NCBI RefSeq assembly: GCF_003918875.1
Contig: NW_025766525.1
Coordinates: 566,865-630,864 of the forward strand
From: Haliotis rubra
Lineage: Eukaryota
Direction: 5' to 3'
DNA length: 64,000 nt
Shown one piece after another: positions 25,291-59,565 of the stretch (position 1 is the stretch's first letter; each line of letters opens with the position of its first letter). The translations under genes and the position numbers were made by a program. The notes under the pieces are model-generated. The model was not told the DNA's origin. It saw only the letters and a list, made by a program, of their open reading frames with translations, and ran no database searches.

Positions 25291-25479
25291 CTCAGGTACT
25301 CACATCTACTCCCAGCTATAAACCGACTTGACCCAGCTACTCACTGACTGAGCTACCCACCGACTTCACCCACTACTCCCAGGTACTCACCGACTTCACC
25401 AAGGTACTCACCAACTACTCCCAGCACCGACTTCACACAGCTACTCAGCAAGACCACAGAAGCACTCACAATCTCCCCA

Positions 25480-28095: not shown

Positions 28096-28299
28096 CTCTC
28101 AGGTACTCACATCTACTCCCAGCTATAAACCGACTTGACCCAGCTACTCACTGACTGAGCTACCCACCGACTTCACCCACTACTCCCAGGTACTCACCGA
28201 CTTCACCAAGGTACTCACCAACTACTCCCAGCACCGACTTCACACAGCTACTCAGCAAGACCACAGAAGCACTCACAATCTCCCCTATGTTTCTCACTG

Positions 28300-31200
28300 A
28301 CATCACTTAACCACCCCACCCACATCTTACTGACGTCCACCCACCCCTAACTAACACTCATCACCCCCTGACAGATGCTTACTGACTCACCCACATCTTA
28401 CTGACGTCCACCCACATCTTACTGACTCACCAACATCTTACTGACTCACCCACATTTTACTGACTCACACACATCTTACTGACGTCCACCCACATCTTAC
28501 TGACGTCCACCCACATCTTACTCACGTCCACCCACATCTTACTGACTCACCCACATCTTACTCACGTCCACCCACATCTTACTCACGTCCACCCACCCCT
28601 AACTAACACTCATCACCCCCTGACAGATGCTTACTGACATCAGCCCACATCTTACTGACGTCCACTCACATCTTACTGACGTCCACCCACATCTTACTGA
28701 CGTCCACCCACCCCTAACTAACACTCATCACCCCCTGACAGATACTTACTGACGTCCACCCACATCATACTGACTCACCCACATCTTACTCACGTCCACC
28801 CACATCTTACTCACGTCCACCCACATCTTACTCACGTCCACCCACATCTTACTCACATCCACCCACATCTTACTCACGTCCACCCACATCTTACTGACTC
28901 ACCCACATCTTACTGACGTCCACACACATCTTACTGACGTCCACCCACCCCTAACTAACACTCATCACCCCCTGACAGATGCTTACTGACATCAGCCCAC
29001 ATCTTACTGATGTCCACCCACATCTTTACTGACGCCCACCCACCCTTCTAACTAACACTCATCACCCCTGACAGATACTCTTACTGACGCCCACCCACAT
29101 CTTACTGACGCCCACCCACATCTTACTGACTCACCCACATCTTTACCACGCCCACCCACATCTTACCCACGCCCTCCAAAAATCTTACTCACGCCCACCC
29201 ACATCTTTACTCCACGCCCACCCACATCTTTACTGACGCCCACCCACATCTTACTGACTCACCCACATCTTACCACGCCCACCCTCATCTTACTGACGCC
29301 CACCAACCCCTAAATAACACTCATCACCCCCTGACAGATGCTTACTGACGCCCATCCACATCTTTACTGACTCACCCACATCTTACTGACGCCCACCCAC
29401 ATCTTACTGACGCCCACCCACATCTTACTGACGTCCACCCACCCCTAACTAACACTCATCACCCCTGACAGATGCTTACTTACGCCCTACCACATCTTTA
29501 CTGACGCCCACCCACATCTTACTCACATCCACCCACATCTTACTGATGTCCACCCACATCTTACTGACATCCACCCACATCTTACTGACGCCCACTCCAC
29601 ATCTTTACTGACGCCAGCCCACATCTTACTGACTCACCCACATCTTACTGACGCCCACCCACATCTTACTGACGCCCACCCACATCTTACTGACTCACCC
29701 ACATCTTTTACTGACGCCCACCCACATCTTACTGACGTCCACCCACATCTTCCTGACATCCACCCACATCTTACTGACTCACCCACATCTTACTGACGTC
29801 CATCCACATCTTACTGACGTCCACCCACATCTTACTGAATCACCCACATCTTACTAACGTCCACCCACATCTTACTGACGTCCACCCACATCTTACTGAC
29901 ATCCACCCACATCTTACTGTCCACCCACATCTTACTGACTCACCCACATCTTACTGACGTCCACCCACATCTTACTGACGTCCACCCACCCCTAACTAAC
30001 ACTCATCACCCCCTGACAGATGCTTACTTACGTCCACCCACATCTTACTGACGTCCACCCACATCTTACTGACTCACCCACATCTTACTGACTCACCCAC
30101 ATCTTACTGACGTCCACCCACATTTTACTGACTCACCCACATCTTACTCACATCCACCTACATCTTACTGATGTCCACCCACATCTTACTGACGTCCACC
30201 CACATCTTACTGACATCCACCCACATCTTACTGACGTCAGCCCACATCTTACTGACTCACCCACATCTTACTGACGTCCACCCACATCTTACTGACGTCC
30301 ACCCACATCTTACTGACTCACCCACATCTTACTGACGTCCACCCACATCTTACTGACTCACCCACATCTTACTGATGTCCACCCACATCTTACTGACGTC
30401 CACCCACATCTTACTGACATCCACACACATCTTACTGACGTCCACCCACCCCTAACTAACACTCATCACCCCCTGACAGATGCTTACTGACATCAGCCCA
30501 CATCTTACTGATGTCCACCCACATCTTACTGACGTCCACCTACCCCTAACTAACACTCATCACCCCCTGACAGATACTTACTGACGTCCACCTACATCTT
30601 ACTGACGTCCACCCACATCTTACTGACTCACCCACATCTTACTCACGTCCACCCACATCTTACTCACGTCCTCCAAAATCTTACTCACGTCCACCCACAT
30701 CTTACTCACGTCCACCCACATCTTACTGACGTCCACCCACATCTTACTGACTCACCCACATCTTACTGACGTCCACCCTCATCTTACTGACGTCCACCAA
30801 CCCCTAACTAACACTCATCACCCCCTGACAGATGCTTACTGACGTCCACCCACATCTTACTGACTCACCCACATCTTACTGACGTCCACCCACATCTTAC
30901 TGACGTCCACCCACATCTTACTGACGTCCACCCACCCCTAACTAACACTCATCACCCCCTGACAGATGCTTACTTACGTCCTACCACATCTTACTGACGT
31001 CCACCCACATCTTACTCACATCCACCCACATCTTACTGATGTCCACCCACATCTTACTGACGTCCACCCACATCTTACTGACGTCCACCCACATCTTACT
31101 GACGTCAGCCCACATCTTACTGACTCACCCACATCTTACTGACGTCCACCCACATCTTACTGACGTCCACCCACATCTTACTGACTCACCCACATCTTAC

Positions 31201-32215
31201 TGACGTCCACCCACATCTTACTGACGTCCACCCACATCTTCCTGACATCCACCCACATCTTACTGACTCACCCACATCTTACTGACGTCCATCCACATCT
31301 TACTGACGCCCACCCACATCTTACTGAATCACCCACATCTTACTAACGCCCACCCACATCTTACTGACGCCCACCCACATCTTACTGACATCCACCCACA
31401 TCTTACTGTCCACCCACATCTTACTGACTCACCCACATCTTTTACTGACGCCCACCCACATCTTTACTGACGCCCACCCACCCCTAACTAACACTCATCA
31501 CCCCCTGACAGATGCTTACTTACGTCCACCCACATCTTACTGACGTCCACCCACATCTTACTGACTCACCCACATCTTACTGACTCACCCACATCTTACT
31601 GACGTCCACCCACATTTTACTGACTCACCCACATCTTACTCACATCCACCTACATCTTACTGATGTCCACCCACATCTTACTGACGTCCACCCACATCTT
31701 ACTGACATCCACCCACATCTTACTGACGTCAGCCCACATCTTACTGACTCACCCACATCTTACTGACGTCCACCCACATCTTACTGACGTCCACCGACAT
31801 CTTACTGACTCACCCACATCTTACTGACGTCCACCCACATCTTACTGACTCACCCACATCTTACTGACGTCCACCCACATCTTACTGACGTCCACCCACA
31901 TCTTACTGACATCCACCCACATCTTACTGACGTCCACCCACATCTTACTGACATCCACCCACATCTTACTGACATCCACCCACATCTTACTGACTCACCC
32001 ACATCTTACTGACGTCCATCCACATCTTACTGACGTCCACCCACATCTTACTGAATCACCCACATCTTACTGACGTCCACCCACATCTTACTGACGTCCA
32101 CCCACATCTTACTGACATCCACCCACATCTTACTGTCCACCCACATCTTACTGACTCACCCACATCTTACTGACTCACCCACATCTTACTGACGTCCACA
32201 CACATCTTACTGAGG
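28300..32215. repeat. Continuation of the 21-bp cccacatcttactgacgtcca satellite, about 3.9 kb.
   Basis: Direct reading. Confidence 0.9.
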
Positions 32216-32595
32216 TCCACCCTCCCCTTACCTATGACTTTTACCCCGTGTATAGCAGTATAAAGGCAAGCATCACATCCGGTGTATGTGTCCAACATTA
32301 AGCCAGTATGAAGCTGTAGTACACTTTTCTGACTTTTCAGTAGCTTGGAAAGTCAGTTGATTTCATTGTTGATAAGGAAATATAGGGCTTCCTCAGCTGA
32401 CAACTGACAAGGATAGTTAGTTGTTGGTGTGAGGACATTTAGGGCTATTGCAAGAGATGATGGTTGTCATCCATCCACTAGTTTGCTGTTTAGCCAGAAA
32501 ACATAATCAAAGTAATGATTTTAAGGAAGGCTAGTGTTTAGGTCCACCACGAGTCACTATTCGGAGGGAGCTTACAGCCCTTCCCTGGCTTCCAC

Positions 32596-33960: not shown

Positions 33961-34565
33961 GGTCGATTTCTTGAGGATTGTAGGCCAGAATCTTGTTGAC
34001 ATCTTAGTTATCAGTGGTACAAAGTGAATCAATATTTTGCCATGATTGCTTCCATGGATACACTACAGTATTTCGTTCTTTTTGTGTTTAGATTTGCCAT
34101 TTTAATATTCCTTTTGGGTCAGTTTATCTAGATAGTAAGTCGAATTTAGGTTTGGATAGGTTCCTATGCTATGGTTAGTGGGAACATATTGATGACGCTA
34201 TGAAATATATGGGGTGTTACAATACTTTTTTCCATGTGTATGTTATGTATGTAATCCCAGGAATGTGGTCTTTGAAATATGCTCACAGAAATATGGATCG
34301 ACTATAAACATGGCTGTCATCTTAAACATGTGGACTCCACCACTGCTGAAACATTCTGCATGTAGCATTATATGAAATTTGAAATAAATTTGAAAGACTG
34401 TAATTTTGGACTGACTAACCAAACCCAATTTATTCCTGGAGTGTCTGGAGTGTCCATGTCATGTCTGATGGAACATGGTGTTGCAGTCCTGTGTTCTTCT
34501 TTTAATGTTCCTCGAATGACTTCCTATTATAATTCCACAGTAGCTATCGCTTCGCGGACACAAGG

Positions 34566-35045
34566 ATGTCTTCAGAGAGAGACCCACCCCGCATAATGCT
34601 GTCAGTGAGAACTCCACGGAGAGAAATGTTTTGGATGAAAGAGATGGAGGTTTCAAGTCCACGTGGATTCCAAAGCAAGATTGCAATGAGTGAGAAAGAA
34701 ACCGACCGTACACTTGAAAGACATACTGACTCTGCTTCACTTATAACCACATCAATTATGAAGAAGCCCAGCTATCTTGACATATCTCTGGAATCTGTGG
34801 CTGCTCTTCGTAAGAAAAAAGCCAAAAAACTATCTGGCAAAAGAGTCGGACTAGAAGAGTTAACTGGAGATAGGCCACTGGATGTGAATGATGAATCCTT
34901 GTTGGACATTGTACAGGACAAGAATACACCAGATGCGGTGGTGTTGCCGATGATGGAGTTGGGTGTCGTTGTGCCGTGTATACGCGAGTACAGGGTGGAA
35001 CTCAATACTGCTCGCATATCAACACTTCTCACCATGCAGCAACAG
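34566..35045 (+). CDS. First coding exon of gene B, the paralogue of gene A (MSSERDPPRIML...VVLPMMELGVVVPCIREYRVELNTARISTLLTMQQQ). The donor is CAG|gtaggt.
   Basis: The ATG sits in the context acaaggATGt. The 3' end is homologous to the end of the gene A long exon (PLELGGHV...NIQMVLQLQHQ). The exon exits in phase 0, matching the next exon at 37513. Confidence 0.6.
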
Positions 35046-35384
35046 GTAGGTCGACCAGCTGTATGTCATCCAAATCTCTTGCACAGTTATAAATTTAGGC
35101 AGTCTTGTAACTATTTATGTTTTGTGACACAGGATATTTTTATTTATCATCCAAAACTGTGTTCCACAGGAGATATCGCTTGTGTGAGATCAAACGATAT
35201 CTCCTAGGAGATATCGTTTTGACAGTAGATTTTGTACAATGCCCTGACAATGCTATGACGTCATGTACTTGATGACGTCACAATGCTATGACATCGCTGC
35301 ACTGCAAGTCTAATGGCAGTACCATGTTCAGAGATGTACATATTTCATTGAAAATTAATGAAGTGTGATTTTGGATGATAAATA

Positions 35385-35639: not shown

Positions 35640-36900
35640 TTATATCAACAGGGGAAGAAGTTGCCTAGCTAGGCCAGAATCTCCCCCTTTTGATGTAAGA
35701 ACAAGGGTGGGGAAGAAGTAGCCTAGCTAGGCCAGAATCTCCCCCTGTTGATATAAGAACAAGGGTAGGGAAGAAGTAGCCTAGCTAGGCCAGAATCTCC
35801 CTTTGATATAAGAACAAGGGTGGGGAAGAAGTAGCCTAGCTAGGCCAGAATCTCCCCCTTTTGATATAAGAGCAAGCTTTAAGGGTGGGGAAGAAGTAGC
35901 CTACCTCGGCCAGAACCTCCCCCTTTTGATATAAGAACAAGGGTGGGAAAGAAGTAGCCTAGCTAGGCCAGAATCTCCCCCTTTTGATATGAGAACAAGG
36001 GAAGGGAAGAAGTAGCCTAGCTAGGCCAGAATCTCCCCTTTTGATATAAGAACAAGGGTGGGGAAGAAGTAGCCTAGCTCGGCCATAATCTCCCCTTTTG
36101 ATATAAGAACAAGGGTGGGGAAGAAGTAGCCTAGCTAGGCCAGAATCTCCCCCTTTTGATATAAGAACAAGGGTGGGGAAGGAGTAGCCTAGCTAGGCCA
36201 TAATCTCCCCCTTTTGATATAAGAACAAGGTTGGGGAAGAAGTAGCCTAGCTAGGCCAGAATCTCCCCCTTTTGATATAAGAACAAGTGTGGGGAAGAAG
36301 TAGCCTAGCTAGGCCATAATCTCCCCCTTTGATATAAGAACAAGTGTGGGGAAGAAGTAGCCTAGCTAGGCCAGAATCTCCCCTTTTGATATAAGAACAA
36401 GGGTGGGGAAGAAGTAACCTAGCTAGGCCATAATCTCCCCTTTTGATATAAGAACAAGGTTGGGGAAGAAGTAGCCTAGCTAGGCCCTTTAGCTCCCCCT
36501 TTTGATATGAGAACAAGGGTAGGGAAGAAGTAGCCTAGCTATGCCAGAATCTCCCCCTTTTGATATAAGAACAAGGGTGGGGAAGGAGTAGCCTAGCTAG
36601 GCCAGAATCTCCCCCTTTTGATATTAGAACAAGGGTGGGGAAGAAGTAACCTAGCTAGGTCATAATCTCCCCCTTTTGATATAAGAACAAGTGTGGGGAA
36701 GAAGTAGCCTAGCTAGGCCAGAATCTCCCCCTTTTGATATAAGAACAAGGGTGGGGAAGAAGTAACCTAGCTAGGCCAGAATCTCCCCCTTTTGATATAA
36801 GAGCAAGGGTGGGGAAGAAGTAGCCTAGCTAGGCCATAATCTCCCCCTTTTGATATAAGAACAAGGGTGGGGAAGAAGTAGCCTAGCTATGCCAGAAACC
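35640..36900. repeat. Minisatellite of about 58-59 bp (unit ggggaagaagtagcctagctaggccagaatctcccccttttgatataagaacaagggtg), about 21 copies, in intron 1 of gene B.
   Basis: Direct reading. A degenerate relative extends to about 37100. Confidence 0.9.
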
Positions 36901-37512
36901 CCCCTTTTCATAGAAAACATCAGAAAACATCCTAGTTTAAACAGGGGGGAAACTTTGGCCTATGGGTGGAAACATTGGCCTAGCCCAAACTTTCCCCAGG
37001 GTAAGAATATCCTAGGACAAAACTTCCCCAGGGAAAGTTTGGCCTAGGCCAGATTCTCACCGGGGAAAGTATAGACTGGGGAAGAAATGGCCTGCTACAC
37101 TGGGTCTTCAGTGTGACAATCGACTACTTTAACCACTTATGTAAGTCGTCGTATATTCAAAGACACAAGAATGAGATTGCACTTCAACTATTCCAAGGTG
37201 TCAGGGAGTGGAGGGATTACATATGCTCTACAAGGCATTCCAACAGTATATCCTGTGGAGGCCGGTTTTGGATAATGAACATTCACTCTTCTTCCATACT
37301 CATCCCGTATCAAATCAGCCTTTGCATCTCTGATATAAGAATTGATGGTTTCTTATTGGAAATATTTTTGATTTAATCTTGCATGTAACTTTACTCTGGA
37401 GATTAGTCTGATATGTCTTCAGTCGTGTTCATGATGGTCTACTTATTTAATACGACAAGAGATTTTCCTGAAGAATTATATTTTTCTACTTCAATTTTGT
37501 TTGCCATGACAG

Positions 37513-37612: not shown

Positions 37613-37932
37613 GTGAGAAATTCTTTGAAACAATTACTTGCACCTGGATGGATTGTCCAGTAGTTGAAGCAGTGTACCAGTGTATGAAATAAGCCAAAAA
37701 ACCCAGCCAGTTACTTGCCCAAAGTGGATTTAACCAGACCAGACACCAAGATATGGTGAATTAACTCAGATGTATGGACTAGCTAAAAATAAAATTTACC
37801 AGACCATCGGGCTGGCTAGCTGTAAATTTAGACCCTCTGTTAGAAATCTAGCCTGTCTTGGGTGGTCAGATTGTCCTTATCCATACACTGAGTTTGCCAT
37901 TGAATCCTGTTTGTAGATTTATATCCATGTAG

Positions 37933-37994
37933 GTGATGAGATGCTCCACCTGTTGGCAAAAGGAGCAATTACATATATTGTTTGTAATTGTTAG
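37933..37994 (+). CDS. Truncated terminal exon of gene B (G-DEMLHLLAKGAITYIVCNC*). It matches the paralogues only as far as ...ctgttggcaa.
   Basis: The acceptor is catgtag| at 37932. The phase-1 entry completes codon G. The next 17 bp match the paralogues, then the sequence diverges into the foldback element and reaches a stop at 37992-37994. Confidence 0.5.
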
Positions 37995-38335
37995 TAAACT
38001 TACCTCTGGATTATGATTGCCTTAATTCTGTGGTTTCCACAGACACATACAGAAAATAAAATGAAAATTTTAACCCTAAGTCCCTAGTGGCATGTTTCCC
38101 TCCTAACCCATAGAGTTACCTCCCCTTGACATGACATCACACCATTGTTGTTTGAAAAACCTCACATTTTGTCCAAAGAAAAAAACTATCTTGTAGAGGA
38201 TAAGGTGGGGAGGTTAGGTGGGACATATATCCTACAATCCAGAGATAAGTCTACTAACAATTGCTAACAATATATGTAATTGTTCCTAATTATAGCGTAA
38301 ACATTCCCTCTTGATTATGGTTGCCTGAATCCCAC
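37960..38335. mobile_element. Foldback/MITE-like element. It has inverted repeats (caattacatatattgtttgtaattgttagtaaacttacctctggattat vs ataatccagagataagtctactaacaattgctaacaatatatgtaattg) flanking an internal sequence of about 200 bp.
   Basis: Reverse-complement matching between 37960-38010 and 38228-38280. A second, reverse-complemented copy of the internal part lies at 45720-45870. Confidence 0.6.
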
Positions 38336-38544
38336 ATACGGAAGGAGGGCTATCCATAGAAGTATAATTCTCTAACATACCACTAGTAAATATTCCTCAA
38401 TCATCTTAGACCTCTTAGGATAACTATGACTTAGTAATGTATACAACACTGATAACATCATAAGATTGTGTTAATAATGTGAAGGAGGATAACTACTAAA
38501 CCGCTAGGTGAGTAGACTCTTTCTCCCTGATAAGATAATATGTT

Positions 38545-38700
38545 CTACTACCTATACCTCTTAATCAAGTATTTCCGATACCCAACCTTCTGATGTCATT
38601 TCCGATATTCTTACGTCATTTCCAGTTCTATGGTGTCACTTCGGGTCCATGACGACACTAATATTCATTCCGCGCGCATGATCTGATGTCACTTCCGGTT
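38545..38700. promoter_or_regulatory. Cluster of five composite motifs TGAYGTCAYTTCC(G)G, each a CRE-like TGACGTCA joined to an ETS-like CTTCCGG, within 160 bp.
   Basis: tgatgtcatttccg, tacgtcatttccag, tggtgtcacttcgg, tgatgtcacttccggtt and tgacgtcacttccggtt were all read directly. The cluster lies at the 3' side (in element orientation) of the DIRS-like element. Confidence 0.4.
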
Positions 38701-40618
38701 AATTGACGTCACTTCCGGTTGATTAACCAAAAAATCTAAAACGGCGGAACAACAGAAAGAGACTGCTCCCTAGAATACTGAACCTCACCTCAGTGCTTGG
38801 TTAGTATCACGAAAGGGATACACATAATCGTTCCTTACCTGTTAAATCTCTGTATCTTTATCTTCCTTCCATGATCTGAATAATACAAGAAGAGCTGGTG
38901 CTCTGATAACCTACAAACCCCCATCCCCCACCCCAGGACACTAGGCAGAGGATGCTGTGCCACTACTAAAGGACCCAAGGACTTAAATTAAAATTGATAA
39001 AGGCATTCTGAGACTTCCATGACAGCTCATGACTACTCACGCAACTGATACCGAACCCCATGCAGCTATAGAAGATGCTAAGGCCCTAATCTCATGAGGG
39101 AAAATCTATTGGTAACTGATTCCATCAGCCATGAAGCAATAGTATTCTTACAGATCTCTGTATCTACATTGTCTTGCATGAGAGGAAGAGATGGCGACGG
39201 TTACGTCTAAAGGTAGATGAGCGTTGTAAGTACCATCTAAGGGCTCTGATTGGGCATAGTAACCTTGATCTATCGGACCTTGAAGCAGTGGCAGGAAGGG
39301 CTGGTATTTCATAAGATCTGTGTCCCAAAGGACCTGCAGCGGCTGACTGATTCTTGGCTGCAAACTCTGGTACTGTCCTACAAGACATTGACTTATAACC
39401 CTCAGCAAGGGCAATAGATTTAACATCAATTGCATGCAACTCTGATTCTCTCGAGGCCTTGGGGAAGGCAAGGAGGAAAGCTGTCTTGAAACTCAAATAT
39501 TTCAGACAGGTATCTTGCATAGGTTCAAAAGGGTATCTCTGTAGAGCTTATAATACTAAGCATAGGTCCACACTGGAAACACTGATGGATCCGTGAACCA
39601 CGCCCTGGTTGGCCATGCTGGAGCTACCAGATAAACTACACAGTTGTGTTGTGCAATTTGGTTAGTACTTCCGGAATTAACTTGAATGGAGGAAACGCAT
39701 AAGCTATGAGATTCTTTCATGATATTGATTGGGCGTCCACTGCCCAGGCGTAGGATCCGGACCGGACTCACAAATATTGGTAGTCTGTTGTTTCTTGACG
39801 TCGCAAACAGATCTATGGATGGCATCTCCCAATTGTCCATAATGAGCTTGAATGCTTCCATATTGAGAGTCCATTCCATTGCCACAATCCTGCCCTGCCT
39901 GGAGAGGGAATCGGCTAAAATGTTCAGCTTGCCTGGAATGTGACGTGCTCTGATAAACTCTACATCATGTCTGCCACTCTGAATATGTCCTGAGTGATGT
40001 AAAGGAGATGATGTGATTTTGTTCCTCCTTGTTTGTTTATGTACGCTACTACCATACTGGTGTCCGTTACCAACATGATACTTTTCCGATGTAGACTCCA
40101 AGACCAATGGGAAAGAGCCTTTTGTAGTGCTAACATCTCGAGACAATTGATGTGAAGATTGCTCACTTCCGGAGACCAAAGACCCTGAGCCTGATACACG
40201 TCCATATGAGCACCCCAGCCCGTGGTTGAAGCGTCCGTATAAATCGTGACCTCTGGAGGAGGCTGACGAAAGTGAACTCCCGGAAGGACGTTGCTGTTGA
40301 CTGTCCACCATAATAGTTCCTGGCGTTTTATGCTGGAAGGAGAGATCGTTTCTTCCAGGTCCAGATTGCGAAACTGGTTTAGCCAAATCTGTGGTTCCCG
40401 CAAATGTATCCTGCCCCTCCTCGTAACAACCTGGATGGATGTGAGAGATGCCATCAGAGACATCCATGAACGAAACCGACACAGCCTTGTCTGCCGGGAG
40501 ATCATAGACTTTGGACCGAATCTTGTACTAGCGATCTTGAGGAGTATAGAGTCATCCCGCCTTGGCATCAAGAATGGCTCCCAGATACTTGATCCTTGAC
40601 GTGGGTTCCATTTATGAT

Positions 40619-40806
40619 TTGGGGCGGTGGGGTAGTCTAGTGGTTTAAGCGGTGGCTCATCACGCTGAAGACCCTGGTTCAAATCCCCACATGGGTACAA
40701 AGTGCGAAGCCCATTTCTGGTGTCACCCGCTGTGATGTTGCTGGAATATTGCTAAAAGCGGCGTAAAGCCAAACTCAGTCAGTCAGTCAGTCCAGTTCTG
40801 ATTTGA
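40619..40806 (+). mobile_element. tRNA-derived SINE nested in the DIRS-like element. Its head, ggggcggtggggtagtctagtggtttaagcggtggctcatcacgctgaagaccctggttcaaatcccc, carries an A-box (tagtctagtgg) and a B-box (ggttcaaatcc). The body ends in a (cagt)n tail.
   Basis: Pol III box A/B consensus motifs are present. A candidate 7-bp target-site duplication, tgatttg, occurs at both flanks. Confidence 0.7.
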
Positions 40807-41103
40807 CAGGATGTACTATGAGACCGAGATGGGTAAATACATGGAGAATAAAATCGTCCAAGTACCCGTGAATTGCAATCTGACACCGATGCAGGAACGC
40901 TAAGATGGGATTTATGACCACTGTGAAGAGCCAAGGAGCTAGCGATATCCCGAACGGTAGGACACGAAACTGGAATCTCCGGCCGTTTATCGCAAAACGA
41001 AAGTACTTCTGTGAACGAGGATGAATAGGTACGTGGAGATAAGCGTCCTTCAAGTCTGTGCTGATGAACATGGAGCCCTGTTGAATAAATGTTCTCAAGT
41101 TGG

Positions 41104-41222
41104 CCTTGGTGGGGTAGCCTAGTGGTTAAGGCGTTAACTCGTCACCATGAATACCTGGGTTCGAATCCCCACTTGGGTACAATGTGTGAAGCCCATGGCA
41201 TTGAGTGAGGACGCCTTGGCCA
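41104..41222 (+). mobile_element. Second, truncated copy of the same tRNA-SINE head (ggggtagcctagtggttaaggcg...ctgggttcgaatccccacttgggtacaatgtgtgaagcccat), inserted in the RT region of the DIRS-like element.
   Basis: A-box and B-box motifs are present. gccttgg is repeated at both flanks and may be a target-site duplication. Confidence 0.65.
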
Positions 41223-41679
41223 GGTTAGAATTGTAAGATTCCAATGAAGATTTCAATGCCGACGAATAAGGAAGAGATAATCTGGAAATCCTTTCTGGAG
41301 GCAGGCAGCCCGAAGTTCCTAGTTCAACTGGTAATTCCTGTTCTGGTTCGTCCAATTGTGACGTGACCGTGATTGGATATAAGCCATGAATCAGTTCTAC
41401 TTTCTCCTTGAAAGACCAACCTGGGGTAAAATCCTCAGACGAAGTATCCATAGGCTGAACCATGAGTAAACCCTCCTTCATTAAAAAGTCCGGCTGGGAA
41501 ACGGATAAACGGAAATACACTCTGAGTCCAATAAATCCGGTACCAGGGGTAAAATTGGCGGCTGTCTTGTCTGTAGGCTGGGAGATGAAGGCCGGAGGCA
41601 CGTAATCAGTCCCGCTAACTGGCTGAAGCCCATTCCCCGCGTGGGATAAGGTGACAGGCTTTTCCTGTTGGCGTCACCC

Positions 41680-43560
41680 GAATCCCTAGGCTTCGGGTCC
41701 TAGTCAAATGGGTCTCATGACAAATGGGCCCCAAAATGGAAAAGTCAAAAGGGTCGAAAGAAAGTCAAAATGGCTGTAAACCCCTAGTCAAAAGGGCCGC
41801 ATCAAAATTTAAAAGGGCCCCATCAAAAAGTCAAAAGGGCCTCAGACCCCTAGTCTAAAGGCCCCATATAAAAAAGGGTATTATAGTAAAGGTTATATAG
41901 CATGACCAGAAATTATTGAGAAGTTTAGGAATATGTTTAATTGGATATCTAGTATAAACAACCTTGACCTGCTATCAAGTGCTTGGTTTCATTCAAGAGA
42001 GACAACCCTGTTAATCCTTCTGCATTAGTTTGTGAAGAGTTATCCCCCTTTGTTTAATTGCTAGTAGACGACATTTTCAGTGATCCTCAGTATGGATGAT
42101 TTAGAGAAGAGGAAGTTGAGTTAAGAGTATTATAACAAGGACATCAGATCAGCTAAAGTGATTTCAAGTAGAACAGGCATCCCTTTGTCCACTTTTTATC
42201 GTGTTTTGAAAAATATTGCAAATGGATATGGCATTGAGCACCAGGGAGGCGCAGGCAGGCCCAGAAAATTGACTGTCAGTGACAGGAGTTGGTTTGGTAT
42301 TCTTGTTTCTAAAAACAAACGAAGGAGTTTAGAAAACTTAAGGCTGATAGAGGAACTGTGGCTGTCTGTAAGGAGACAATTAGAACTGAGCTGCATGCAA
42401 TGGGTTGGCAGAAAAGTCGAGGAATTCCATCACCGATCATGAAACCTGAACAAAAGGAGCGAAGGTTGAACTGGTGCTTACAGCACCAGAAATTTTAACT
42501 GAAACAATATGATTTTCTCAGATGAAAGTTCTGGGTGGCTGTTTCCTAATACACTGAAATTCTGGACCAAACAAACTGAAAAACCTTTTTATCAGTGCCC
42601 AAAGTACAGTCAGAAATTAAACGTGTGGGGTGGGATATCTGTGTTAGGGGCAACACCCCTCTGTGTATTTGAAGGGAATATGAACAGTGAGCGGTACACA
42701 GGTATTCTTGAAATTTACTTCCATCTGCTCACGTGTTCTATGGAAATTTTTGGATTTTCCAGCAGGACAACAACCCAAAACATCGTTCAAAACATCCAAG
42801 GTGTTTAACAATTAAATGCTAAAAAAATGCAAGCTGAACAAAATACATAAAAGATATCATTTTCATGATAAAATATTTCTTGATTAAGTTTAAGAACATA
42901 CCTATTTTTGTGACATATTTAAGGGTGTTACAAATCTCTCAATAGAATTTCTAGCTAAAACTTTAATACCACCTGCATACCAACCTTTCTGATTGCCTGA
43001 CAACAATTTAATAGCATAATTAAATCTCTTAAGTCAAACTGTTGAAGCCATGTCTCTGTTAGTCCTATTATATAATAAGATTTCACATAATCAATAAAGT
43101 GAGGAAAACCAGCATGCCACCTAATTTTGGCATTTGCTGATATAGACAGACAGATTGTTTATTTCTCTGCCAAAGTATTTGTCATAATCATAAATGATAG
43201 GTGTTTTGTTACTTAGATGAAATAATAACCATCACATACATCTATTCTTTGTCAGCATTTTCTTTCAAATATTGAAAAAAATATCTTCTTAAAACTGAAC
43301 TAGTATGTATAAAGTATACATTGTATAGATGTATCTAACGTTTTACTATAATACACTTTTACAAAAAGATGTTATTTTTTTATATGGGTCCCTTTTGACT
43401 AGGGGTCTGAGGCCCTTTTGACTTTTTGATGCGGCCTGTTTGACTAGGGATTTGCGGTCCTTTTGACTTTCTTGTGTCCCTTTTGACTTTTCCGTTTACG
43501 GTCCCTATTGTCATGCGACCCTTTTGACCTGTTCCCTAGGCTTTTTCCCCTGTGGGGAAT
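41680..43560 (+). mobile_element. Tc1/mariner-family DNA transposon with long TIRs of about 200 bp (41680-41880 and the reverse complement at 43380-43560). The TIRs contain internal agtcaaaaggg(c) direct repeats. Inside is a degraded transposase with an N-terminal HTH region (GRPRKLT) and the start of the DDE domain (FSDES..., NVWGGIS). The 3' half is missing.
   Basis: The TIR pair is verified by reverse complement (ccctagtcaaaagggcc..., gggcctcagacccctagtc). ORFs 42158-42442 and 42509-42808 carry the Tc1 motifs. Confidence 0.75.
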
Positions 43561-44279
43561 TGCTCTCCGGTCAGGACAGTACATGATACCCAGCTTTCCC
43601 AGGTAGAGCACCTAAAGTCTTCACGGTACCAGGGATACTCTACAACAGGGATAGGTCACTCGCTTGCTTTTTTTTACCATTTGTACTAATTAACGTGTGC
43701 CTCGGCATGCTCCAATGCACACAGTGACTTGGTTCGTTCCCAGTGCAACTTCGGCTGCGTTTAACAGTACTTCAGCCAGTTTATTGTATCAGTTGGAATT
43801 TTACAATGAATGAATGAATGTATGAATGAATGTATTAAGAGCACGAATTATATGTGAATGAATGAAAGAAATAAAGAAAAAGAACAAAAGAAAGAAATAC
43901 ATATGTGAATGAATGAAAGAATAAATGATATACTACGGCCATCCCTCCCCAAACCTGTTAAAGAACGCAAAACTATCGTTAGATCACATGTGTTAACATC
44001 AGCTGTCCTTTTTTTAAAAAATCTACTTTGAGGCATTTTTTACATCAGTAATAAATTCAGATATCTTATTGCATGTGTGGGATGGCATGGACATTTACAG
44101 AATGTTAACTGACACCGTCACACACCCCTCAAAAACAAAGTTTAGAGCTATCACAAAGCGTTGTAAACACCTTTCCAGTTTTGTCAAATACTAAGATCAA
44201 CTAGAAAGAAAGAAGTTTTAGAACCATAACACACAAGCATCAATGGCGGATAAGAACAGATCGGCAATATGTCATATTT

Positions 44280-44650
44280 TTCACATATCTCAAATACACC
44301 CTAACAATTTTTTTAAAATTATAAAACTATCACTATTACTTGCAAACACCTTTCACCTGATGGTATATTACCCTCATAAAAATTAAAGGTGTATGTGAAA
44401 GATGTTTTAGAACAATAACTAGAAACACTCAAACAACGCCCTGTAGTATTTCAATGGCAGATCAGCGATATGTCATATTTTTTCACACACCTCAAATACA
44501 CCCTAACAAAAAAAATTCAGTTATAAAACTATCACTATTACTTGCAAATACCTCTCAACTAAAGGTATATGTCCCTTCTAAAAATTAAACGAATATGTGA
44601 AAGAAGTTTTTAGCAATAGATTTTAGTCTTTCTTCGCTGTGTACCGATAA
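44280..44650. repeat. Tandem duplication of about 190 bp (atatgtcatattttt-cacatatctcaaatacaccctaacaa...ttacttgcaaacacc...).
   Basis: Two adjacent near-identical units were read directly. Confidence 0.7.
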
Positions 44651-45157
44651 TAAACGCCAATGAGCTACAACATGCCGACTTGAAACGTTACTACAAATCT
44701 ACTGTACTAATACTGACACTTATAACAATTATTTGACTTAAAATGAAGTGACAGAATAGGTAACTTATCTTCTACATGTAGGTTTTCAGTTGTCGCAACA
44801 CTCAGCGAATGTAAAAAATAAAATAATGTTGAAAAGCGAATGTTGAAAATAAATCAGGCTCATATTAAAAACTTCGCTGCTGCCATATTGGCTACACTGG
44901 TCACGTGACGAGCCGAGGCATACGCTAAGGGGCTTTTCGAGGAGTGACCACTCCCTTACTGACAGATGAACCGGCCTTTGCCCTCGCCAAACAGTCTGTA
45001 TTATTCATAGCCATATTGCCATGATCAATACTCTCTTGAAACATTCTCTGTAGAGAGTTGATTTTTGTCTCATTCCTCAAATCCATCTCCTTCATAGTCT
45101 GGTTAACTGAGGCTTGCAGCTCCGTTTTAAATGAAGAAAACAAATCTGCAATAGCCG

Positions 45158-45472
45158 TTAAATCCAAAAGAGAAGAATCTGATTTTGATCAAGACCTCGA
45201 CTTTGATTTAGGCTCCAATCTCTGAGAAGAAGCTGGTGTACTAGGAGTGGATTTCTTAGGTTTACTAGCCTCAGAACATAGAGAACTCTTACGTTTCTTA
45301 GACTGAGACCTAGCCTGTCGATGTTAAGCCACTGAATTTCTGACAAGTCGAAGCATAACAAACAACGATCTACAAGGGTGCAGGGGGTCCGCGTAAAGCA
45401 CGGTAAGCAAAGAGAGTGAGGGTCTAGATCGGACATAAATTTTTTACATTGAACACATTTAGATTTCGCCAT
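45158..45472 (-). CDS. Hypothetical ORF with a Cys-rich N-terminus (MAKSKCVQCKKFMSDLDPHSLCLPCFTRTPCTLVDRCLLC...). The product is unknown. An alternative Lys/Ser-rich frame downstream suggests a frameshift.
   Basis: The ORF is present in the six-frame track. The ATG is at 45470-45472 (minus strand). No recognisable domain was found. It may belong to a transposable element. Confidence 0.25.
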   Translation of the reverse strand: MAKSKCVQCKKFMSDLDPHSLCLPCFTRTPCTLVDRCLLCFDLSEIQWLNIDRLGLSLRNVRVLYVLRLVNLRNPLLVHQLLLRDWSLNQSRGLDQNQILLFWI

Positions 45473-45719
45473 AACTGAAGAGAAAAACTGAGGGAAAAAG
45501 GGCGGGAAAAGTCTAACAAAATAGACAATAATTTGTCGCAAATACGATTGTCACAAGGACCAAATGTCGACACCACTAACCGACAAGATATGGATCTAGT
45601 GTTGGAGACTGTTGATAGCAGAAATTTGTACTTCAATCTTGTGCATGTCTGTACTGTAGACCATGCAGAAAAATTGTGAGGGTTTTCAAACAACAATGGT
45701 GTGATTTCATGTCAAGGGG

Positions 45720-45870
45720 AGGTAACTCTATCGGTTAGGAGGGAGACATACCAGTAAGGGTAGCTATGACTTAGGGTGAAAATTTTCATTTCATTTTCTG
45801 TATGTGTCTGTGGAAACCACAGAATTAAGGCAACCATAATCCAGAGGGAATGTTTACGCTATAATTCCTC
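45720..45870 (-). mobile_element. Reverse-complement partial copy of the foldback element seen at 38008-38150.
   Basis: The reverse complement of 45723-45850 matches ctctggattatg.ttgccttaattctgtggtttccacagacacatacagaaaat.aaatgaaaatttt.accctaagtc...at 38008-38100. Confidence 0.6.
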
Positions 45871-46035
45871 TTTATCTTGTATCTGTGTTTGTATCAGTGG
45901 GTGCATGACTTTGCTATCTGTGATCAACATGTCATGTTACAGGAAGGCCTGTGGCTGATGAGATGCTCCACCTGTTGGCAACACTCTCAATCATGAATCT
46001 GTGTTTTTATCTGTGATCAACATGTCATGTTACAG

Positions 46036-46289
46036 GAATGACTGTGGACGGTGAGATGCTCCACCTGTTGGCAACACTACTGGTGATCTTCAGCATCTTG
46101 GAGGCTCTCTGTCCAGAGTTATTCCCCTTGTCCTTCAACAGTCTTCTTGAGTATTCTTCTCAGAAAGATCAAATTCAGCAGACCCAAAAAGGAATCCGAA
46201 ACAAGTTGCTGACCCCGATGTTGCAGGAATCACTGAGTCGGGGGTTAAACGTCTGCCTGGCTACTGACAGCAAACATCGGCCTGACTGA
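46036..46289 (+). CDS. Terminal exon of a third paralogue, gene C (G-MTVDGEMLHLLATLLVIFSILEALCPELFPLSFNSLLEYSSQKDQIQQTQKGIRNKLLTPMLQESLSRGLNVCLATDSKHRPD*).
   Basis: The acceptor is gttacag| at 46035. It is homologous to 9101-9519 over the ..TLL.I..ILEALCPELFPL block. A tandem duplication of about 90 bp at 45921-46060 copies the acceptor and the first 45 bp of the exon. Confidence 0.55.
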
Positions 46290-47504: not shown

Positions 47505-50500
47505 TAAAATTACATACCTATAACTTTCAGTTAATAACATTATCATGGTACACCAGGTATCCACACTCAGTGTAAGCTGAGCAAGCATAGTTCATGCCAC
47601 ACCACCACACGGGCTCTTCATTCAGCTGTTCACAATTATAGACAATAGGAAAAGTGGAAAGCAACTATCTCATTGTATCTGTTTTACTGTCCCTAAATAC
47701 ACTTGACATGCCATTACATTACATGTTGTGGTCTTTGTATGTTTGTTTTTGTCTGTCTGTTGGTATTTTCGTCTTGGTCTGGTTTACTTTGTATTTATTT
47801 ATCTCCAATATATTGTACAATTGTCAGTACTTGTCCCGGGGGATTATCATAAACTCTTAGGGTACTTATTGAATTGTAAATAACGTTCCAATACGCCGAC
47901 TTATTTATATATTTCTTCATATGGGTAATCATTGCGAAGTCATTGATATGACTACTCTCCCACTGTTCTCCATAGTTTGGAGTTTTGATTGTATTTAGTT
48001 GGGGTTTGTTTTGTTTTTGTGTTTTTTTCTTATCGTTTCTTTACCAACCGACGTGTACTACGTCCATTTACTTCACGCATTTACAGATGTCTAAACAGTA
48101 GTTATAATTGACATATTAATAAAATTACATACCTGTAATTTTCAATCAATAACATTATCCAGGTACACCAGGTATCCACACTCAGTGTAAGCTGAGCAAG
48201 CATAGTTCATGCCACACGACCCGCACGGGCTCTTCATTCAGAACATGCATACATAGCAGCTGTTCACAATTATAGACAATAGGAAAAGTGAAAGCAACTA
48301 TCTCATTGTATCTGTTTTACTGTCCCTAAATACACTTGACACGTCATTATTTACATGTTGTGGTCTTTGTATGTTTGTTTTGTCTGGTTGTGGGTATTTT
48401 CGTCTTGGTCTGGTTTACTTTGTATTTATTTATCTCCAATATATTGTACAGTTATCAGTACTTGTCTCAGGGGATTATCGTAAAGTCTTATGATACTTAT
48501 TGAATTGTAAATAACGTTCCAATACGTCGACTTATTTATATATTTCTTCATATGGGTAAGGTCGTGCCGAAGTCATTGATATGACTACTCACCCACGTTC
48601 TCCATTTTTTTGAGTTTTGATTGTATTTATTTTTTTATCGTTTCTTTACCAACCGACATGTACTACGTCCATCTATTTCACGCATGTTCAGATGTCTAAA
48701 CAGAAGTTATCCTTGCATGTTGGTACCACAACCTCATTTTCTATTTACTATTCTCATACTTCAAATGTTCCACATAATGTTTTACCTCACTACACGAAGC
48801 ATATTCCTCAAGCAGCACGTCCCACTGCCTCCAACTTCATATTGTTCGTAAGACAGATCGATGGGGGGTTGACATAACTCAGTATAGGATGGTAGTAGGG
48901 TTGTTCGCTGCTATTACCTCTAGTAGAAATAGTCGCCGTTTTGATAGATTTACTTGTTTTTGCATAGTCCTATGATTTCTTTATTATTGATATACTGTGG
49001 AGACGTACATCCAAACCCGGGTCCTGATCTTAGTATTATCCATTTAAACATACGTAGCTTGAGAGATAAAGTTGATCTACTTGCTGCCGAATACAGTCAC
49101 TATGACGTCATTTGTTTATCTGAGACTTGGTTAAGTCATGACGTAACGAATGATTCTATAGCTATATCCGGGTATCATCCGCCACTTCGTAAAGATAGAC
49201 CGACAAGGGGTGGAGGGGTTTAAAATTTGGGAAACACTTCAAGGATGCATTTAAGAGAACAATTTATGACTATAACCGTGCAGACTACGATGGGTTAAGT
49301 GATAGTATATCATCAACCGATTGGGACACTCTGTTTAGTGATGATATTAATATCTCTGTTGAAACTTTTACATCCACGCTCAGTAGATTAATCAATAAAT
49401 ATATTCCAAATAAAGAAGTAGTTATAAGACCTCGAGACTGTATATGGATGAACGGATATCTCATGGAAATTAATGAGGAAAAGAAACCGCCTACATAAAG
49501 TTGCTAAACGAAAAAATGATACCTATCATTGGGAATGTTTTAAAGTCGCTAGAAACAAAGTCATTTCGAAGTTAGAAAAGCTAAACGCAAGATATGATTT
49601 GAAACTTGATGATATCATTAACACCGATAGAGGAACTAAATCATGGTGGCGATTAGTAAATAAGCATATTAAGAAAAATAGAAATTCAGGTAAACAGTTT
49701 TCACCTATCACACACAACGGTACTGTTCTAGAAGATGCAGATGACATTGCTAATGCGTTTAATGAATACTTCACAGAACAAGCCCAAGTTGATTTAACCT
49801 AATATCGACTCACCTCCTCCCACTCACAGCTTAAAACAAATTAGATATAATTCTCTAACGGAAAATGAAGTGTATGATATCCTGGTGTGTTTAGACACAA
49901 AGAAAGCTAAGGGTCCTGATAATATCAGCAATAAATTATTAAAAGTTTTAGCTCGGCCTCTCCATAGACCCGTTACGAAGCTTTTGAATCTATCCCTAAA
50001 ACATTCTCAATTTCCCGACATTTGGAAATTTTCGGCAGTTGTCCCTCTTCACAAAAAAGGAAGTGTGCATGATTGTAATAATTATAGGCCAGTTGCTCTA
50101 TCTTGTTGTTTGGCTAAAGTATTTGAAAAGTGTATATTCAAGCACGTTTATAATTTCTTTATGGATAATGATATTATATCGAAACATCAGTCTGGATTTA
50201 AACCTGGTTTTATCAAAGGCTCTAGATGAGGGTAAAGAAGTCCGAGCTGTCTTTTGTGATATCAGCAAGGCCTTCGATCGTGTTTGGCACGCAGGGATGG
50301 TATCAAAACTTGAATCCATAGGAATAACTGGAAAACTATTGCTTTGGTTTGAAAATTATCTTAGTAATAGAAAACAGTCAGTTGTGATTAATGGCCACAA
50401 ATCGAGTCCAAAATTTGTATCGGCTGGTGTTCCTCAAGGCTCTGTCTTGGGGCCACTATTATTTCTCGTCTATATAAACGATTTAACCAACGGAATAGTA

Positions 50501-52050
50501 AGTAACGTTAAACTCTTTGCTGATGATACTTCCCTATACTTAGTAATTGAAGATCCGTTTCGGACACAGACATTGCTTAATAATGACCTTGAACGTATTT
50601 CAGACTGGGCTTCCAAGTGGCAGGTTAATTTCAACCCTGAAAAGACAGAAGCTATGTTATTCTCCAATGCAAGTCCGAAACTTCAATTAACACTTAATAA
50701 TACTGCGATTTCTGAAGTTTGTGAACATAAACATCTTGGTCTGATTATACAAGATGATGGAAAATGGCAGAATCATATTAATTATATACTAGCCAAAGCA
50801 AGTCCACTAATAAATTGTCTGAGAAGTTTGAAACACAGGCTAAACAGAATATCACTTGAAACTATGTATAAATCATATATTTTGCCTATATTTGACTACT
50901 GTGATACCATCTGGGATAACTGTACCAAGGAGCAGGCTCATCTGATAGAGAAGCTACATTTAGATGCCCTTAGGACTATTTCAGGTGCAGTGAGAGGCAC
51001 AAGTCATGATAAACTTTATGCTGAAACAGGATATTGTTCTTTAGTCGAAAGACGCCACTATCATAAATTATGTATGTTCTACAAAATGGTAAATGGGTTA
51101 ACACCACAATATCTCTCAATATGGGTACCACCAAATGTTTCTAATCAAAGCCTCTATAATTTGCTTAAACTCCGATAATCTCCAATGTAATGCAGGGCGT
51201 GTATCTTACTTTAATAATTCTTTTCTCCTATCTACTGTTAAGGCATGGAATTCGCTTGACATCAATATTAGAAATGTAGAATCATTATCAAAATTTAAGA
51301 AATGTATATCTTGTGACATGACATTATCCCCAACATTTAAGAATTATATATCGTATGGTCCCAGGCGAGGTCAAATTCTTCGCTGTCGTTTGCGCCTGGG
51401 CTGCAGTGATCTTAATTCTCACTTGTTTGATAGATATTTGTCAGACAGCCGAACCTGCTCCTGTGGGAACACTCGAGAAGATGCTTACCATTATTTCCTT
51501 CAGTGTCCTCTATATGATAGGTTTAGATTTAATAAATACTTCTTTCAAAATAATATAAGTTTACATGCTATTCTAAGCAGCGGTGAATCTTTGTCCCAGT
51601 ATGAAAACGAATTAATAATAAAATCGGTTTACAGTTTCTTAAATGATACCAACCGTTTTCCATGAAGTGTGGTACCATATGCTTTACTTAGTTTGAAATT
51701 ATTGAATTACTTATTTCCACAAATGTACTTATAAAATCATTCTCTGCAAGATTATGTTTAGGAGAAGCATTTACATAGGCTGATGCAGCCTGTTTGCTGA
51801 TCATTTTTCCTTTTTGTAACTTAATCATGTTTAATGTATATCACATGTCTTTCGGGAAATAAAAATACTGTTTAAATATGATCACCAGATTTAGAATATA
51901 TTCACTGTGATATTCCACGCTTGTAAGCTGTTATTTATCTTAATGATATAGCTATAGCTATTATATGTTATATTTTTATATTTTTTTTCTACATTGCAGT
52001 TAATGAAATAAAAAATAAAACTACTAAACTTTTCCAGGGTGGTTTTCTTT
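47505..52050 (+). mobile_element. Non-LTR retrotransposon (LINE, CR1/Jockey-like).
- Two tandem 5' monomers of about 610 bp (47505-48115 and 48118-48725).
- An ORF start carrying a 2A-like motif (LLIYCGDVHPNPGPD).
- APE endonuclease N-terminus (LSIIHLNIRSL...CLSETWL...RKDRPTRGGGV), followed by an internal deletion.
- RT domain (...NYRPVAL..., VRAVFCDISKAFDRVWH, LFADD).
- C-terminal CCHC-like motif (CSCGNTREDAYHYFLQCPLY).
   Basis: The motifs were read in ORFs 48954-49223, 49473-49802, 49870-50229, 50039-51178 and 51135-51665. Frameshifts are present. An AATAAA signal and an A-rich end lie near 52007-52050. Confidence 0.8.
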
Positions 52051-52639
52051 AATGAGTATTCACATCAAGAGTTCAGCCGTCTCCATGGAAACTGTTAGTT
52101 TTATAGCTTCTAGTTAATGGCAAACACAGAGTTTGGATAATAAAATGCTGTTGGTACAATTGATAGCAGAAGGCACACCAAGTTAAATATCTCGGTGGTT
52201 GCATGACGTTGATAGCAGAGGACACCAGGTGTCCAGCTTGGTTGCAGGTCATTGTCCCCTGGTACGTGTTATTGATCTTCAGTAACCCATGCTTGTAAGA
52301 GGTGACTAACAGGATCGGGTGGTCAGGCTCGCTGACTTGGTTGACACATGTCGTCGGTTCACAATTGCGCAGATTAATGCTCATGCTGTTGATCACTGGA
52401 TTGTCTGGTCCAGATTCGATTATTTACAGACCACCGCCATATATCTGGAATATTGCTGAGTGTGGCATTAAACAACCAACCAACCAACCAACCAATCCTC
52501 ATCTCAGTGTACCTCCACTACAGAACAAGTTAAAAAGTATCTTTCTCTTGAAATAGATTTTATTCCATGTTTTACAAAATGTACATTCAGAAAACATTTG
52601 TATTTACAATTTAGCCAGCTCTCAATCACATGCTGACTA

Positions 52640-53230
52640 TAGCCACATCATGTACACTCAACCACTGAATCATAGAATTGTTGATTCAGCACATTTAAGC
52701 ACTGAATCATTGATTCTGTACACTCGAACACTGAATCACTGATTCTGTACACTCGAACACTGAATCATTGAATCACTGAACCTGTACACGCGATCACTGA
52801 TTCTGTACACTCATACACTGAATAATTGAATCACTGATTTTGTACACTCAAACACTGAATCATTGAACCTGTACACGCGAACACTGAATCACTGATTCTG
52901 TACACTCGAACACTGAATCATTGATTCTGTACACTCATACACTGAATCATTGAATCACTGATTTTGTACACTCAAACACTGAATCATTGATTCTGTACAC
53001 TTGAACACTGAATCACTGATTTTGTACACTCAAACACTGAATCATTGATTCTGTACACTTGAACACTGATTCTGTTCACTCGAATACTGAATAACTGAAT
53101 TGCTGATTCTGCACATTTAAACACTGAATTGTTGAATAACTGATTTTGTAAAACTTAAAGACTGTATAGTTTAATCACTGATTCTGTACACTCATACACT
53201 GAATTGTTGAATCACTGACACCATATATTC
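52640..53230. repeat. Irregular tandem repeat of about 40 bp (ctgtacactcgaacactgaatcattgaatcactgatt...).
   Basis: Direct reading. It is degenerate. Confidence 0.7.
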
Positions 53231-53799
53231 TAACAGCTGAATCATTGAATCTCTGAGTTTCTGGATCTGATATCCTAGAACAGTGATGGTCACCACATTA
53301 GGTGACACAAGGGCATTAGATATCCATGGATGTACAAGTATGTCGGCACTTGTATCTTGCTACACGATGATACAGTGTCCTCACAGACTTCAAAACAAAA
53401 AGTGTGGCTCAGTCCAGAGAATGGCTGATCCTGGAGATACGTTTTGCAGTTTGCTGTGTAGAGCAGCACCCCTTTGGCATGCTGGATCCTATGATCCATG
53501 TTATGATCCATGTTATGATCCCTGGTAAGTCAACAGATTGAGGATGCTATACCACAGCAACAATCAGGTGATCTCGCACGTTTTCACCTGACTAGCAATG
53601 TCCTCCTTGCAAACCTGGAAACTCCAAGTTCCTGCCAGCTTCCAACGATATTATGGATATAACAGAGAAAGACCCAGGTGAAGGAACGGAACAGTGACTT
53701 ACATTCATGAGTGTACTTACATCAATTCATGTGTTATTAACCATTTTATGTACATCGCATCATTGGACAGTTTGCCTCATCCACAAGTATACACATTTC

Positions 53800-59039: not shown

Positions 59040-59215
59040 TGCTTGAGGACCTTGACGGTCTGGTCAAGACTTGATGCTTGAGGACCTTGACGGTCTGGTC
59101 AAGACTTGATGCTTGAGGACCTTGACAGTCTGGTCAAGACTTGATGCTTGAGGACCTTGACGGTCTGTTCAAGACTTGATGCTTGAGGACCTTGACGGGC
59201 TGGTCAAGACTTGAT
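59040..59215. repeat. 35-bp x 5 tandem repeat (gatgcttgaggaccttgacggtctggtcaagactt).
   Basis: Direct reading. Confidence 0.85.
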
Positions 59216-59349
59216 TATTTACAGACTGCCATCATACAGCTGGAATATTGCAAAGTGTGACAGTAACAAAAGACAACTGCACATATTTGACATCTTGGAT
59301 GTCCATGCCATCACTGTACATGAGGGTTACTGGTACTACACAACTCACC

Positions 59350-59440: not shown

Positions 59441-59452
59441 CTATAGCAGGTA

Positions 59453-59565
<113 letters not shown>

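Follow-up and report, generated by a model that had tools for sequence, protein, structure and literature searches.

The closest described systems are the DIRS1-like retrotransposons of molluscs, which have been known in gastropods since 2011 (AcaDIRS1/2 of Aplysia and LgDIRS1-3 of Lottia; Piednoel et al. 2011, PMC3266345). By their published description, these elements carry a pol of reverse transcriptase (RT), RNase H and a methyltransferase-like block, plus a tyrosine recombinase (YR). They end in inverted terminal repeats (ITRs) with divergent outer parts and a right-hand extension, hold a two-part internal complementary region (ICR), share a short motif between both repeats and both ICR halves, and have a native size of ~5-6 kb. 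In Dictyostelium DIRS-1, which also encodes a YR, the ICR likewise complements the joined termini (Cappello model; Malicki et al. 2020, PMC7192593), and it was shown experimentally to be essential for retrotransposition (PMC7192593). Here we analysed a 64,000-nucleotide stretch of Haliotis rubra DNA (contig NW_025766525.1, positions 566,865 to 630,864, forward strand; hereafter the window), and found that positions 37961-45866 very probably represent one decayed DIRS1-type YR retrotransposon on the minus strand, which entered a short local tandem repeat as a single insertion.

Set beside the mollusc elements, the Haliotis copy agrees in its pol composition and YR, its ITRs with divergent outer parts and right extension, its shared motif and its native size (PMC3266345). 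The two parts of its ICR measure 43 and 52 nt against 39-46 and 67-88 nt in the mollusc elements, and the conserved part of its repeat measures ~171 bp against 31-141 bp (PMC3266345). Unlike those elements, the present copy is degenerate and carries nested insertions. It resembles Dictyostelium DIRS-1 in the design of the ICR and in encoding a YR, and differs from it in gene order, since YR and pol overlap in another way in DIRS-1; host and sequence are very distant, and the mollusc family is known from sequence alone.

Termini, internal complementary region and insertion site

We found that one half of the ICR, 38288-38330, is the complement of 45824-45866, the first 43 nt of the element (95%), and that the other half, 38236-38287, is the complement of 37961-38012, the last 52 nt (E 6e-13 and 2e-13 for the two matches). 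The reverse complement of the whole ICR thus reads as the last 52 nt joined to the first 43 nt, with 88 of 95 positions matching and no gap. This complementarity to both ends fixes the termini at 37961 and 45866, together with the gapless alignment of the joined flanks described below. The sequence-only reading had placed the element stack at 39148-43560, which proved too narrow: the YR alone reaches to ~38946, and the element spans 7.9 kb, not ~2.5 kb.

The two ITRs support the same limits. Positions 45668-45857 and 38173-37994 are 88% complementary (blastn E 5e-64), and repeat searches delimited the pair 38003-38173 and 45668-45847 as ~171-190 bp of 88-95% complementarity. The outermost 19 nt at the left end and 42 nt at the right end show no mutual relatedness. 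The motif CCTCTGGATT, located at the repeat boundary, is common to both inverted repeats and both ICR halves. A layout with ITRs, ICR halves and a shared short motif has been described for DIRS1-like elements, mollusc ones included (Piednoel et al. 2011, PMC3266345).

Repeat searches of the window revealed no LTRs (long terminal repeats), no long or split direct repeats linking the ends or the interior, and no additional copies of the inverted repeats or the ICR inside the element. No rve (integrase) or protease Pfam match was found in any minus-strand frame of 38900-41640. Because ITRs and an ICR are present and split direct repeats are not, the family, as judged from sequence features, is DIRS1-type, and Ngaro, PAT and LTR assignments are excluded. 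The earlier label "DIRS/Ngaro-like" thus resolves to DIRS1-type.

The target DNA is a local tandem duplication, one unit of which (45949-46015) serves as a paralogous "empty site". The joined flanks (up to 37960 and from 45867) align to this unit without a gap across the join, where a single insertion without duplication predicts ...CTGTTGGCAAA followed directly by CCTCTTTATC.... This indicates a single insertion without target-site duplication, as would be expected of a recombinase.

Both flanks of the element contain a 32-nt sequence (..GATGAGATGCTCCACCTGTTGGCAA), at 37928-37959, 45950-45981 and 46043-46074; it belongs to the duplicated target and not to the element. In the 3' region that separates the YR from the ICR, 38589-38724 holds 5-6 copies of TGA(C/T)GTCA(C/T)TTCC(G), a unit that resembles a CRE-like palindrome with an adjacent ETS-like core and may be a regulatory module or merely a small repeat. 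Other copies of the DIRS, Tc1 or SINE1 sequences are absent from the 64-kb window, apart from a weak 36-nt match (37102-37137).

Table 1. Window coordinates of the proposed DIRS1-type element, its parts, the elements nested in it and its target DNA
Feature	Position	Strand	Remarks
Whole DIRS1-type YR retrotransposon (very probable reading)	37961..45866	-	7906 bp; ~5.7-5.8 kb minus nested elements; dead
Right (3') inverted terminal repeat	37961..38173	-	repeat ~38003-38173 plus unique outer extension 37961-38002
Internal complementary region (ICR)	38236..38330	-	two adjoining halves, one per element end
YR catalytic domain remnant	38946..39583	-	3-4 frames; N-terminal SAM-like half deleted
Conserved post-RNase H block ("methyltransferase-like" domain of the DIRS literature)	39589..39954	-	3 frame changes
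RT thumb/connection and RNase H	39960..40614	-	DAS..GWGA at 40247-40206; frame shift near 40490
SINE1	40615..40805	+	span includes both copies of the duplication; 177-bp body 40622-40798: tRNA-like head, body, (CAGT)4 tail
RT core	40793..41101	-	YLDD motif 40864-40844; 16-codon in-frame deletion just after YLDD
SINE2	41108..41212	+	tRNA-like head; A-box-like TAGCCTAGTGG, B-box-like GGTTCGAATCC; 3' limit tentative
Segment between SINE2 and the Tc1 element	41213..41687		open 155-codon minus-strand frame 41134-41601
Tc1-type DNA transposon, internally deleted	41688..43545 (about)	+	inverted repeats ~41688-41875 and 43376-43545
Interior between the Tc1 element and ORF1	43546..44927		(AATG)n-like tract 43805-43930; 2.4 copies of a 202-bp unit 44137-44610
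ORF1 (gag-like) remnant	44928..45472	-	two frames; ~180 codons recognisable; downstream of left repeat
Left (5') inverted terminal repeat	45668..45866	-	outer 19 nt (45848-45866) unique to left end
Target DNA: local tandem duplication, ~93-116 bp	45867..46078		45949-46015 is the paralogous "empty site"

Coding remnants and relatives

Stops, deletions and at least 7 frameshifts interrupt the coding remnants on the minus strand (RT, RNase H, the post-RNase H block and the YR). All four had been recognised, in frameshifted form, by the sequence-only reading, and each was recovered by Pfam, tblastn or profile searches. The pol profile was built from 80 homologues and run against the six-frame translation. 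Among 2902 homologues of the RT, RNase H and post-RNase H block, the best was the Haliotis rubra predicted protein LOC124255024 (hereafter P0001; 73% identity, E 7e-221).

The RT core matches Pfam RVT_1 (54.7 bits) and the homologue profile (130 bits), and is 77% identical to P0001 residues 277-395 (tblastn). The RNase H region gave a weak Pfam RT_RNaseH match (20.8 bits) and a homologue profile match of 194 bits. In tblastn with P0001, the thumb, RNase H and post-RNase H block span 40629-39589 with at least 5 frame alternations, the latter two occupying 40490-39589. The post-RNase H block matches no Pfam family; it spans profile positions 475-598 and shares 57% identity with P0001 residues 614-751 (tblastn). 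Ngaro elements are not known to carry this block, which is present here.

The profile of YR homologues matches 39547-39167 (131 bits, E 8e-39), followed by collinear pieces in other frames at 39200-39081 and 39105-39040. The remnant keeps the R (ASRESELHA, 39457-39431) and H-x-x-R (39099-39070) motifs. The reconstructed C-terminal sequence finds 20 proteins, two of which (P0124 and P0130) pass the Pfam Phage_integrase cutoff; others carry an N-terminal SAM-like domain. The alignable part of these homologues begins only at residue 50-125, which places a deletion of the YR's N-terminal half and of the pol tail near 39585. At the other end, the YR frames of two related contigs, L003 and L004, extend the match to ~38946.

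On four contigs (L001, L002, L004 and L005), homologues of pol and YR adjoin on the same strand in the order ORF1-pol-YR. By homology and gene neighbourhood, the RT and RNase H would belong to a YR-linked clade. The proposed identity as a YR retroelement thus stood: the YR frame aligns to recombinases with homologues above the Phage_integrase cutoff, the pol homologues adjoin YR genes, and an LTR-retrotransposon clade was not what the searches pointed to. The intact relative L004, whose genes include a YR and the pol homologue P0009, shows this repeat and ICR design too: its terminal repeats span 130-327 and 7438-7633, and its two ends are complemented by ICR halves at 7261-7303 and 7297-7357. 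L003 has in common with the present element the YR and the ORF1 Cys/His motif. L003 and L004 are metagenome or genome contigs only ~40% identical to the element in pol, and represent other families of the same clade. L001 and L002 show no terminal repeats because these contigs are incomplete. A search for the contig that encodes P0001 found none, and the limits given for SINE2 and the Tc1 element therefore come from the present copy.

The gag-like ORF1 was visible only by direct comparison with the ORF1 of L003, which lies directly upstream of the pol homologue P0013; a search among 5.8 billion proteins gave no match. Its translation begins MAKSKCVQCKKFMSDLDPHSLCLPC... and contains an N-terminal Cys/His motif, C-x2-C-x7-DPH-x2-C-x2-C. 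The alignment of this motif to the L003 ORF1 scored 88, a value that none of 2000 shuffles reached (mean 28.5, maximum 53), and BLASTP gave E 7e-8.

Outside the element, 34533-35204 on the plus strand holds a 224-codon open frame, which has no Pfam match and a chance-level match (E 0.64) to the N-terminal YR profile.

Nested elements and the missing RT N-terminus

Short interspersed elements (SINEs) and Tc1 elements each occur in abalone genomes in copy numbers from the tens to the hundreds of thousands (PMC11393055, Table 4), so a nested stack is expected here. The SINE, Tc1 and DIRS classes are all abundant in these genomes (PMC11393055). The locus is an ordinary pile of dead mobile elements, and nothing in 37961-45866 can still move on its own.

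SINE1 is flanked by a 7-bp duplication, TGATTTG, at 40615-40621 and 40799-40805. Excision of its body and one copy of the duplication restores the pol frame as ...HPVKS-stop-MEPTSRIKYLGA..., which is colinear with HPVKSELVPTSKIKYLGA of P0001 without an indel. SINE1 is therefore a clean insertion, and the only one of the two SINEs for which insertion is cleanly demonstrated. SINE2 shares with SINE1 the 89-nt head only (41108-41196 and 40626-40714, 82% identical), and A/B-box-like motifs occur in both heads. The Rfam tRNA model gave 22.2 bits for SINE2, below its 29-bit cutoff, and nothing for SINE1; ARAGORN detected no tRNA. Two tRNA-SINE heads with A/B boxes and candidate duplications had been proposed inside pol. 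The tRNA-like heads and the SINE1 duplication were borne out, and the SINE2 candidate, GCCTTGG, is not verifiable.

In its tRNA-like head with A/B-box-like motifs, body, short tandem-repeat tail and variable-size duplication, the design resembles gastropod and bivalve SINEs derived from tRNAs (Matetovici et al. 2016, PMC4758252). The tail of SINE1 is (CAGT)n, compared with (CACCT)n reported for Haliotis MESC SINEs (PMC4758252).

The Tc1-type transposon has inverted repeats of ~170-190 bp, which are 81% identical, differ by one 21-bp indel and are built of repeated 21-23-bp motifs. Its transposase remnant (42092-42804) is missing the C-terminal third, including the region of the third acidic residue. 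The reconstructed transposase matches HTH_Tnp_Tc3_2 (33.5 bits, cutoff 31.5), and its catalytic core aligns with the Sleeping Beauty transposase through the DNxPKH motif and then stops (E 4e-9). These matches agree with the Tc1/mariner element with long terminal inverted repeats that had been read from the sequence. The element resembles Tc1 transposons with long repeats of the IR/DR (inverted repeat/direct repeat) type, such as Sleeping Beauty, in its paired-like helix-turn-helix, in a core alignable to SB100X that includes the first D and DNxPKH, and in ~180-bp inverted repeats holding repeated 21-23-bp motifs. Unlike Sleeping Beauty, it has a transposase truncated before the third acidic residue and no recognisable TA duplication, and an exact, TA-containing 11-bp direct repeat, TCCCTAGGCTT, brackets its ends (41683-41693 and 43533-43543).

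Homology to pol stops abruptly at 41101, exactly at SINE2, and P0001 has the RT N-terminal region that the present copy lacks. On the simplest reading, a deletion would have started within SINE2, taken its 3' part and run upstream through the N-terminus of pol.

An RT N-terminus had been assigned to 41213-41601, where we detected no RT similarity. A by-eye match of minus-strand 41213-41690 and 43545-43800 to the P0001 N-terminus (GFPDYLFLIRRH, SHC, YNKLAE) was withdrawn, as no support came from local alignment with shuffles, the 80-homologue profile, frameshift-aware alignment or an excision-boundary scan. The 155-codon frame between SINE2 and the Tc1 element belongs to no Pfam family, and among 1.8 billion representative proteins it gave only spurious matches to repetitive bacterial surface proteins. 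No similarity to pol or ORF1 was found in 43546-44927. We also considered a larger transposon with short inverted matches (41230-41244 with 43793-43807) as its ends, and rejected it because the hits were chance-level and non-colinear.

Rival layouts, proposed history and genomic setting

Several observations weigh against a single DIRS1-type insertion. The conserved RT N-terminal region (~130 residues) was undetected in the window by tblastn, profile and frameshift-aware alignment. The abrupt end of homology at 41101 calls for at least one deletion or replacement, and two interior stretches that total ~1.85 kb (41213-41687 and 43546-44927) are without assignment. The terminal trinucleotides differ, with AAT at the start and CCT, before TTT, at the end, unlike the mollusc DIRS1-like elements with the same trinucleotide at both ends; such a trinucleotide, complementary to the circular junction, is a frequent and not a strict feature of DIRS1-like elements (PMC3266345, Table 3). 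The "empty site" 45949-46015 is a paralogue of ~83% identity and not an orthologous allele. A TA duplication, which had been expected for the Tc1 element, was not seen at its ends as placed by repeat alignment in one copy. Finally, the segment in which the catalytic Tyr of the YR appears replaced by Asn (FINFNL, 39022-38981, where the consensus is FYLRD) was placed by eye only.

The missing pol N-terminus bears on two other layouts. It is quite unlikely that two copies of the same DIRS family were juxtaposed by insertion or recombination, a 5' fragment (repeat and ORF1) and a 3' fragment (RT to the right repeat), with foreign DNA between them. The abrupt break at 41101 would fit such a junction, the inverted repeats are only 88% alike, and Dictyostelium DIRS-1 is reported to prefer pre-existing copies as insertion sites (PMC7192593). 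Yet one ICR is in exact register with both outer ends, the flanks meet on the paralogous unit without a seam, as for a single insertion, and no extra repeat or ICR copies lie between the fragments. The same break, with RT similarity undetectable past 41101, a Tc1 repeat that begins at 41688 and unassigned sequence between ORF1 and the Tc1 element, could also be read as a YR retroelement of only ~39.1-41.6 kb that was 5'-truncated by an adjacent Tc1 element. This layout, in which the Tc1 element abuts the retroelement and may have removed gag, was that of the sequence-only reading, and we consider it highly improbable. The left repeat beyond the Tc1 element pairs with the right repeat, its first 43 nt match the ICR at 95%, an ORF1 with the DIRS-type N-terminal motif is located at 45472-44928, and the flanks 37960 and 45867 are contiguous in the paralogous repeat. 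Since ORF1 and the left repeat survive beyond it, the Tc1 element did not remove gag and is nested inside the DIRS element.

That the element is an Ngaro, PAT-like or LTR (Gypsy, BEL/Pao) retrotransposon instead of DIRS1-type has next to no probability. Pfam detects only generic RVT_1 and RNase H domains, and the RTs of DIRS and Gypsy elements are related (PMC3266345); against this stand the YR, the inverted repeats and the ICR, the lack of long or split direct terminal repeats, and the lack of integrase or protease matches in the minus-strand frames of 38900-41640.

For the single DIRS1-type insertion, the original layout would have been a left inverted repeat, ORF1, pol (RT, RNase H and the "methyltransferase-like" block), YR, a long 3' region, the ICR, and the right repeat with its outer extension. 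The transcript would lack the outermost ends (Cappello model; PMC3266345; PMC7192593), and the ICR, being complementary to the joined ends, would template end restoration and formation of the circle junction. The YR would then recombine the DNA into the genome without target-site duplication. This mechanism is proposed from published work on the class; at this locus we see only the anatomy it predicts, an ICR and the lack of a target-site duplication.

Later, a tRNA-derived SINE would have retroposed into the RT thumb with a 7-bp duplication, and a second SINE with the same head type would have inserted at the start of the RT core. A long-repeat Tc1-type transposon would have inserted upstream and then lost the 3' third of its transposase. 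Deletions presumably took the RT N-terminal region, 16 codons just past YLDD, the tail of pol and the YR's N-terminal half, while point mutations brought the stops and at least 7 frameshifts. We infer the order of these events.

Beyond annotation, the locus is of little biological importance. A consensus for this Haliotis-type DIRS1 family can be seeded from the exact termini, the ICR and the junction without duplication. If it is true that the termini are rebuilt from the ICR, the divergence between the two (7/95) could act as an insertion clock.

More than half of the window consists of varied minisatellite arrays with units of 20-135 bp (507-32222, 35651-36919, 52651-54857 and 56239-63257). 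Examples are a 61-bp unit repeated ~115 times (11069-18067), a 27-bp unit repeated 119 times (19037-22218) and 21-bp units with a GC skew of -0.7 (23188-32222). This DNA looks heterochromatin-like. The present DIRS copy sits within a local tandem repeat in such a window, and by analogy with DIRS-1 in Dictyostelium centromeres, abalone DIRS1-type elements may favour minisatellite-dense, possibly pericentromeric DNA, an idea that we regard as unlikely.

Two further sequences on the plus strand bear on the SINEs. At ~52240-52495, a SINE-like unit ending in (CCAA)n has a 3' domain, CTGGAATATTGCT..G.GGC.T.AA, in common with SINE1, and a different 5' part. At 50039-51662, an open reading frame for a reverse transcriptase of the long interspersed element type (RVT_1, 86 bits) is followed by a weak zf-RVT match, and could be an autonomous partner for SINEs.

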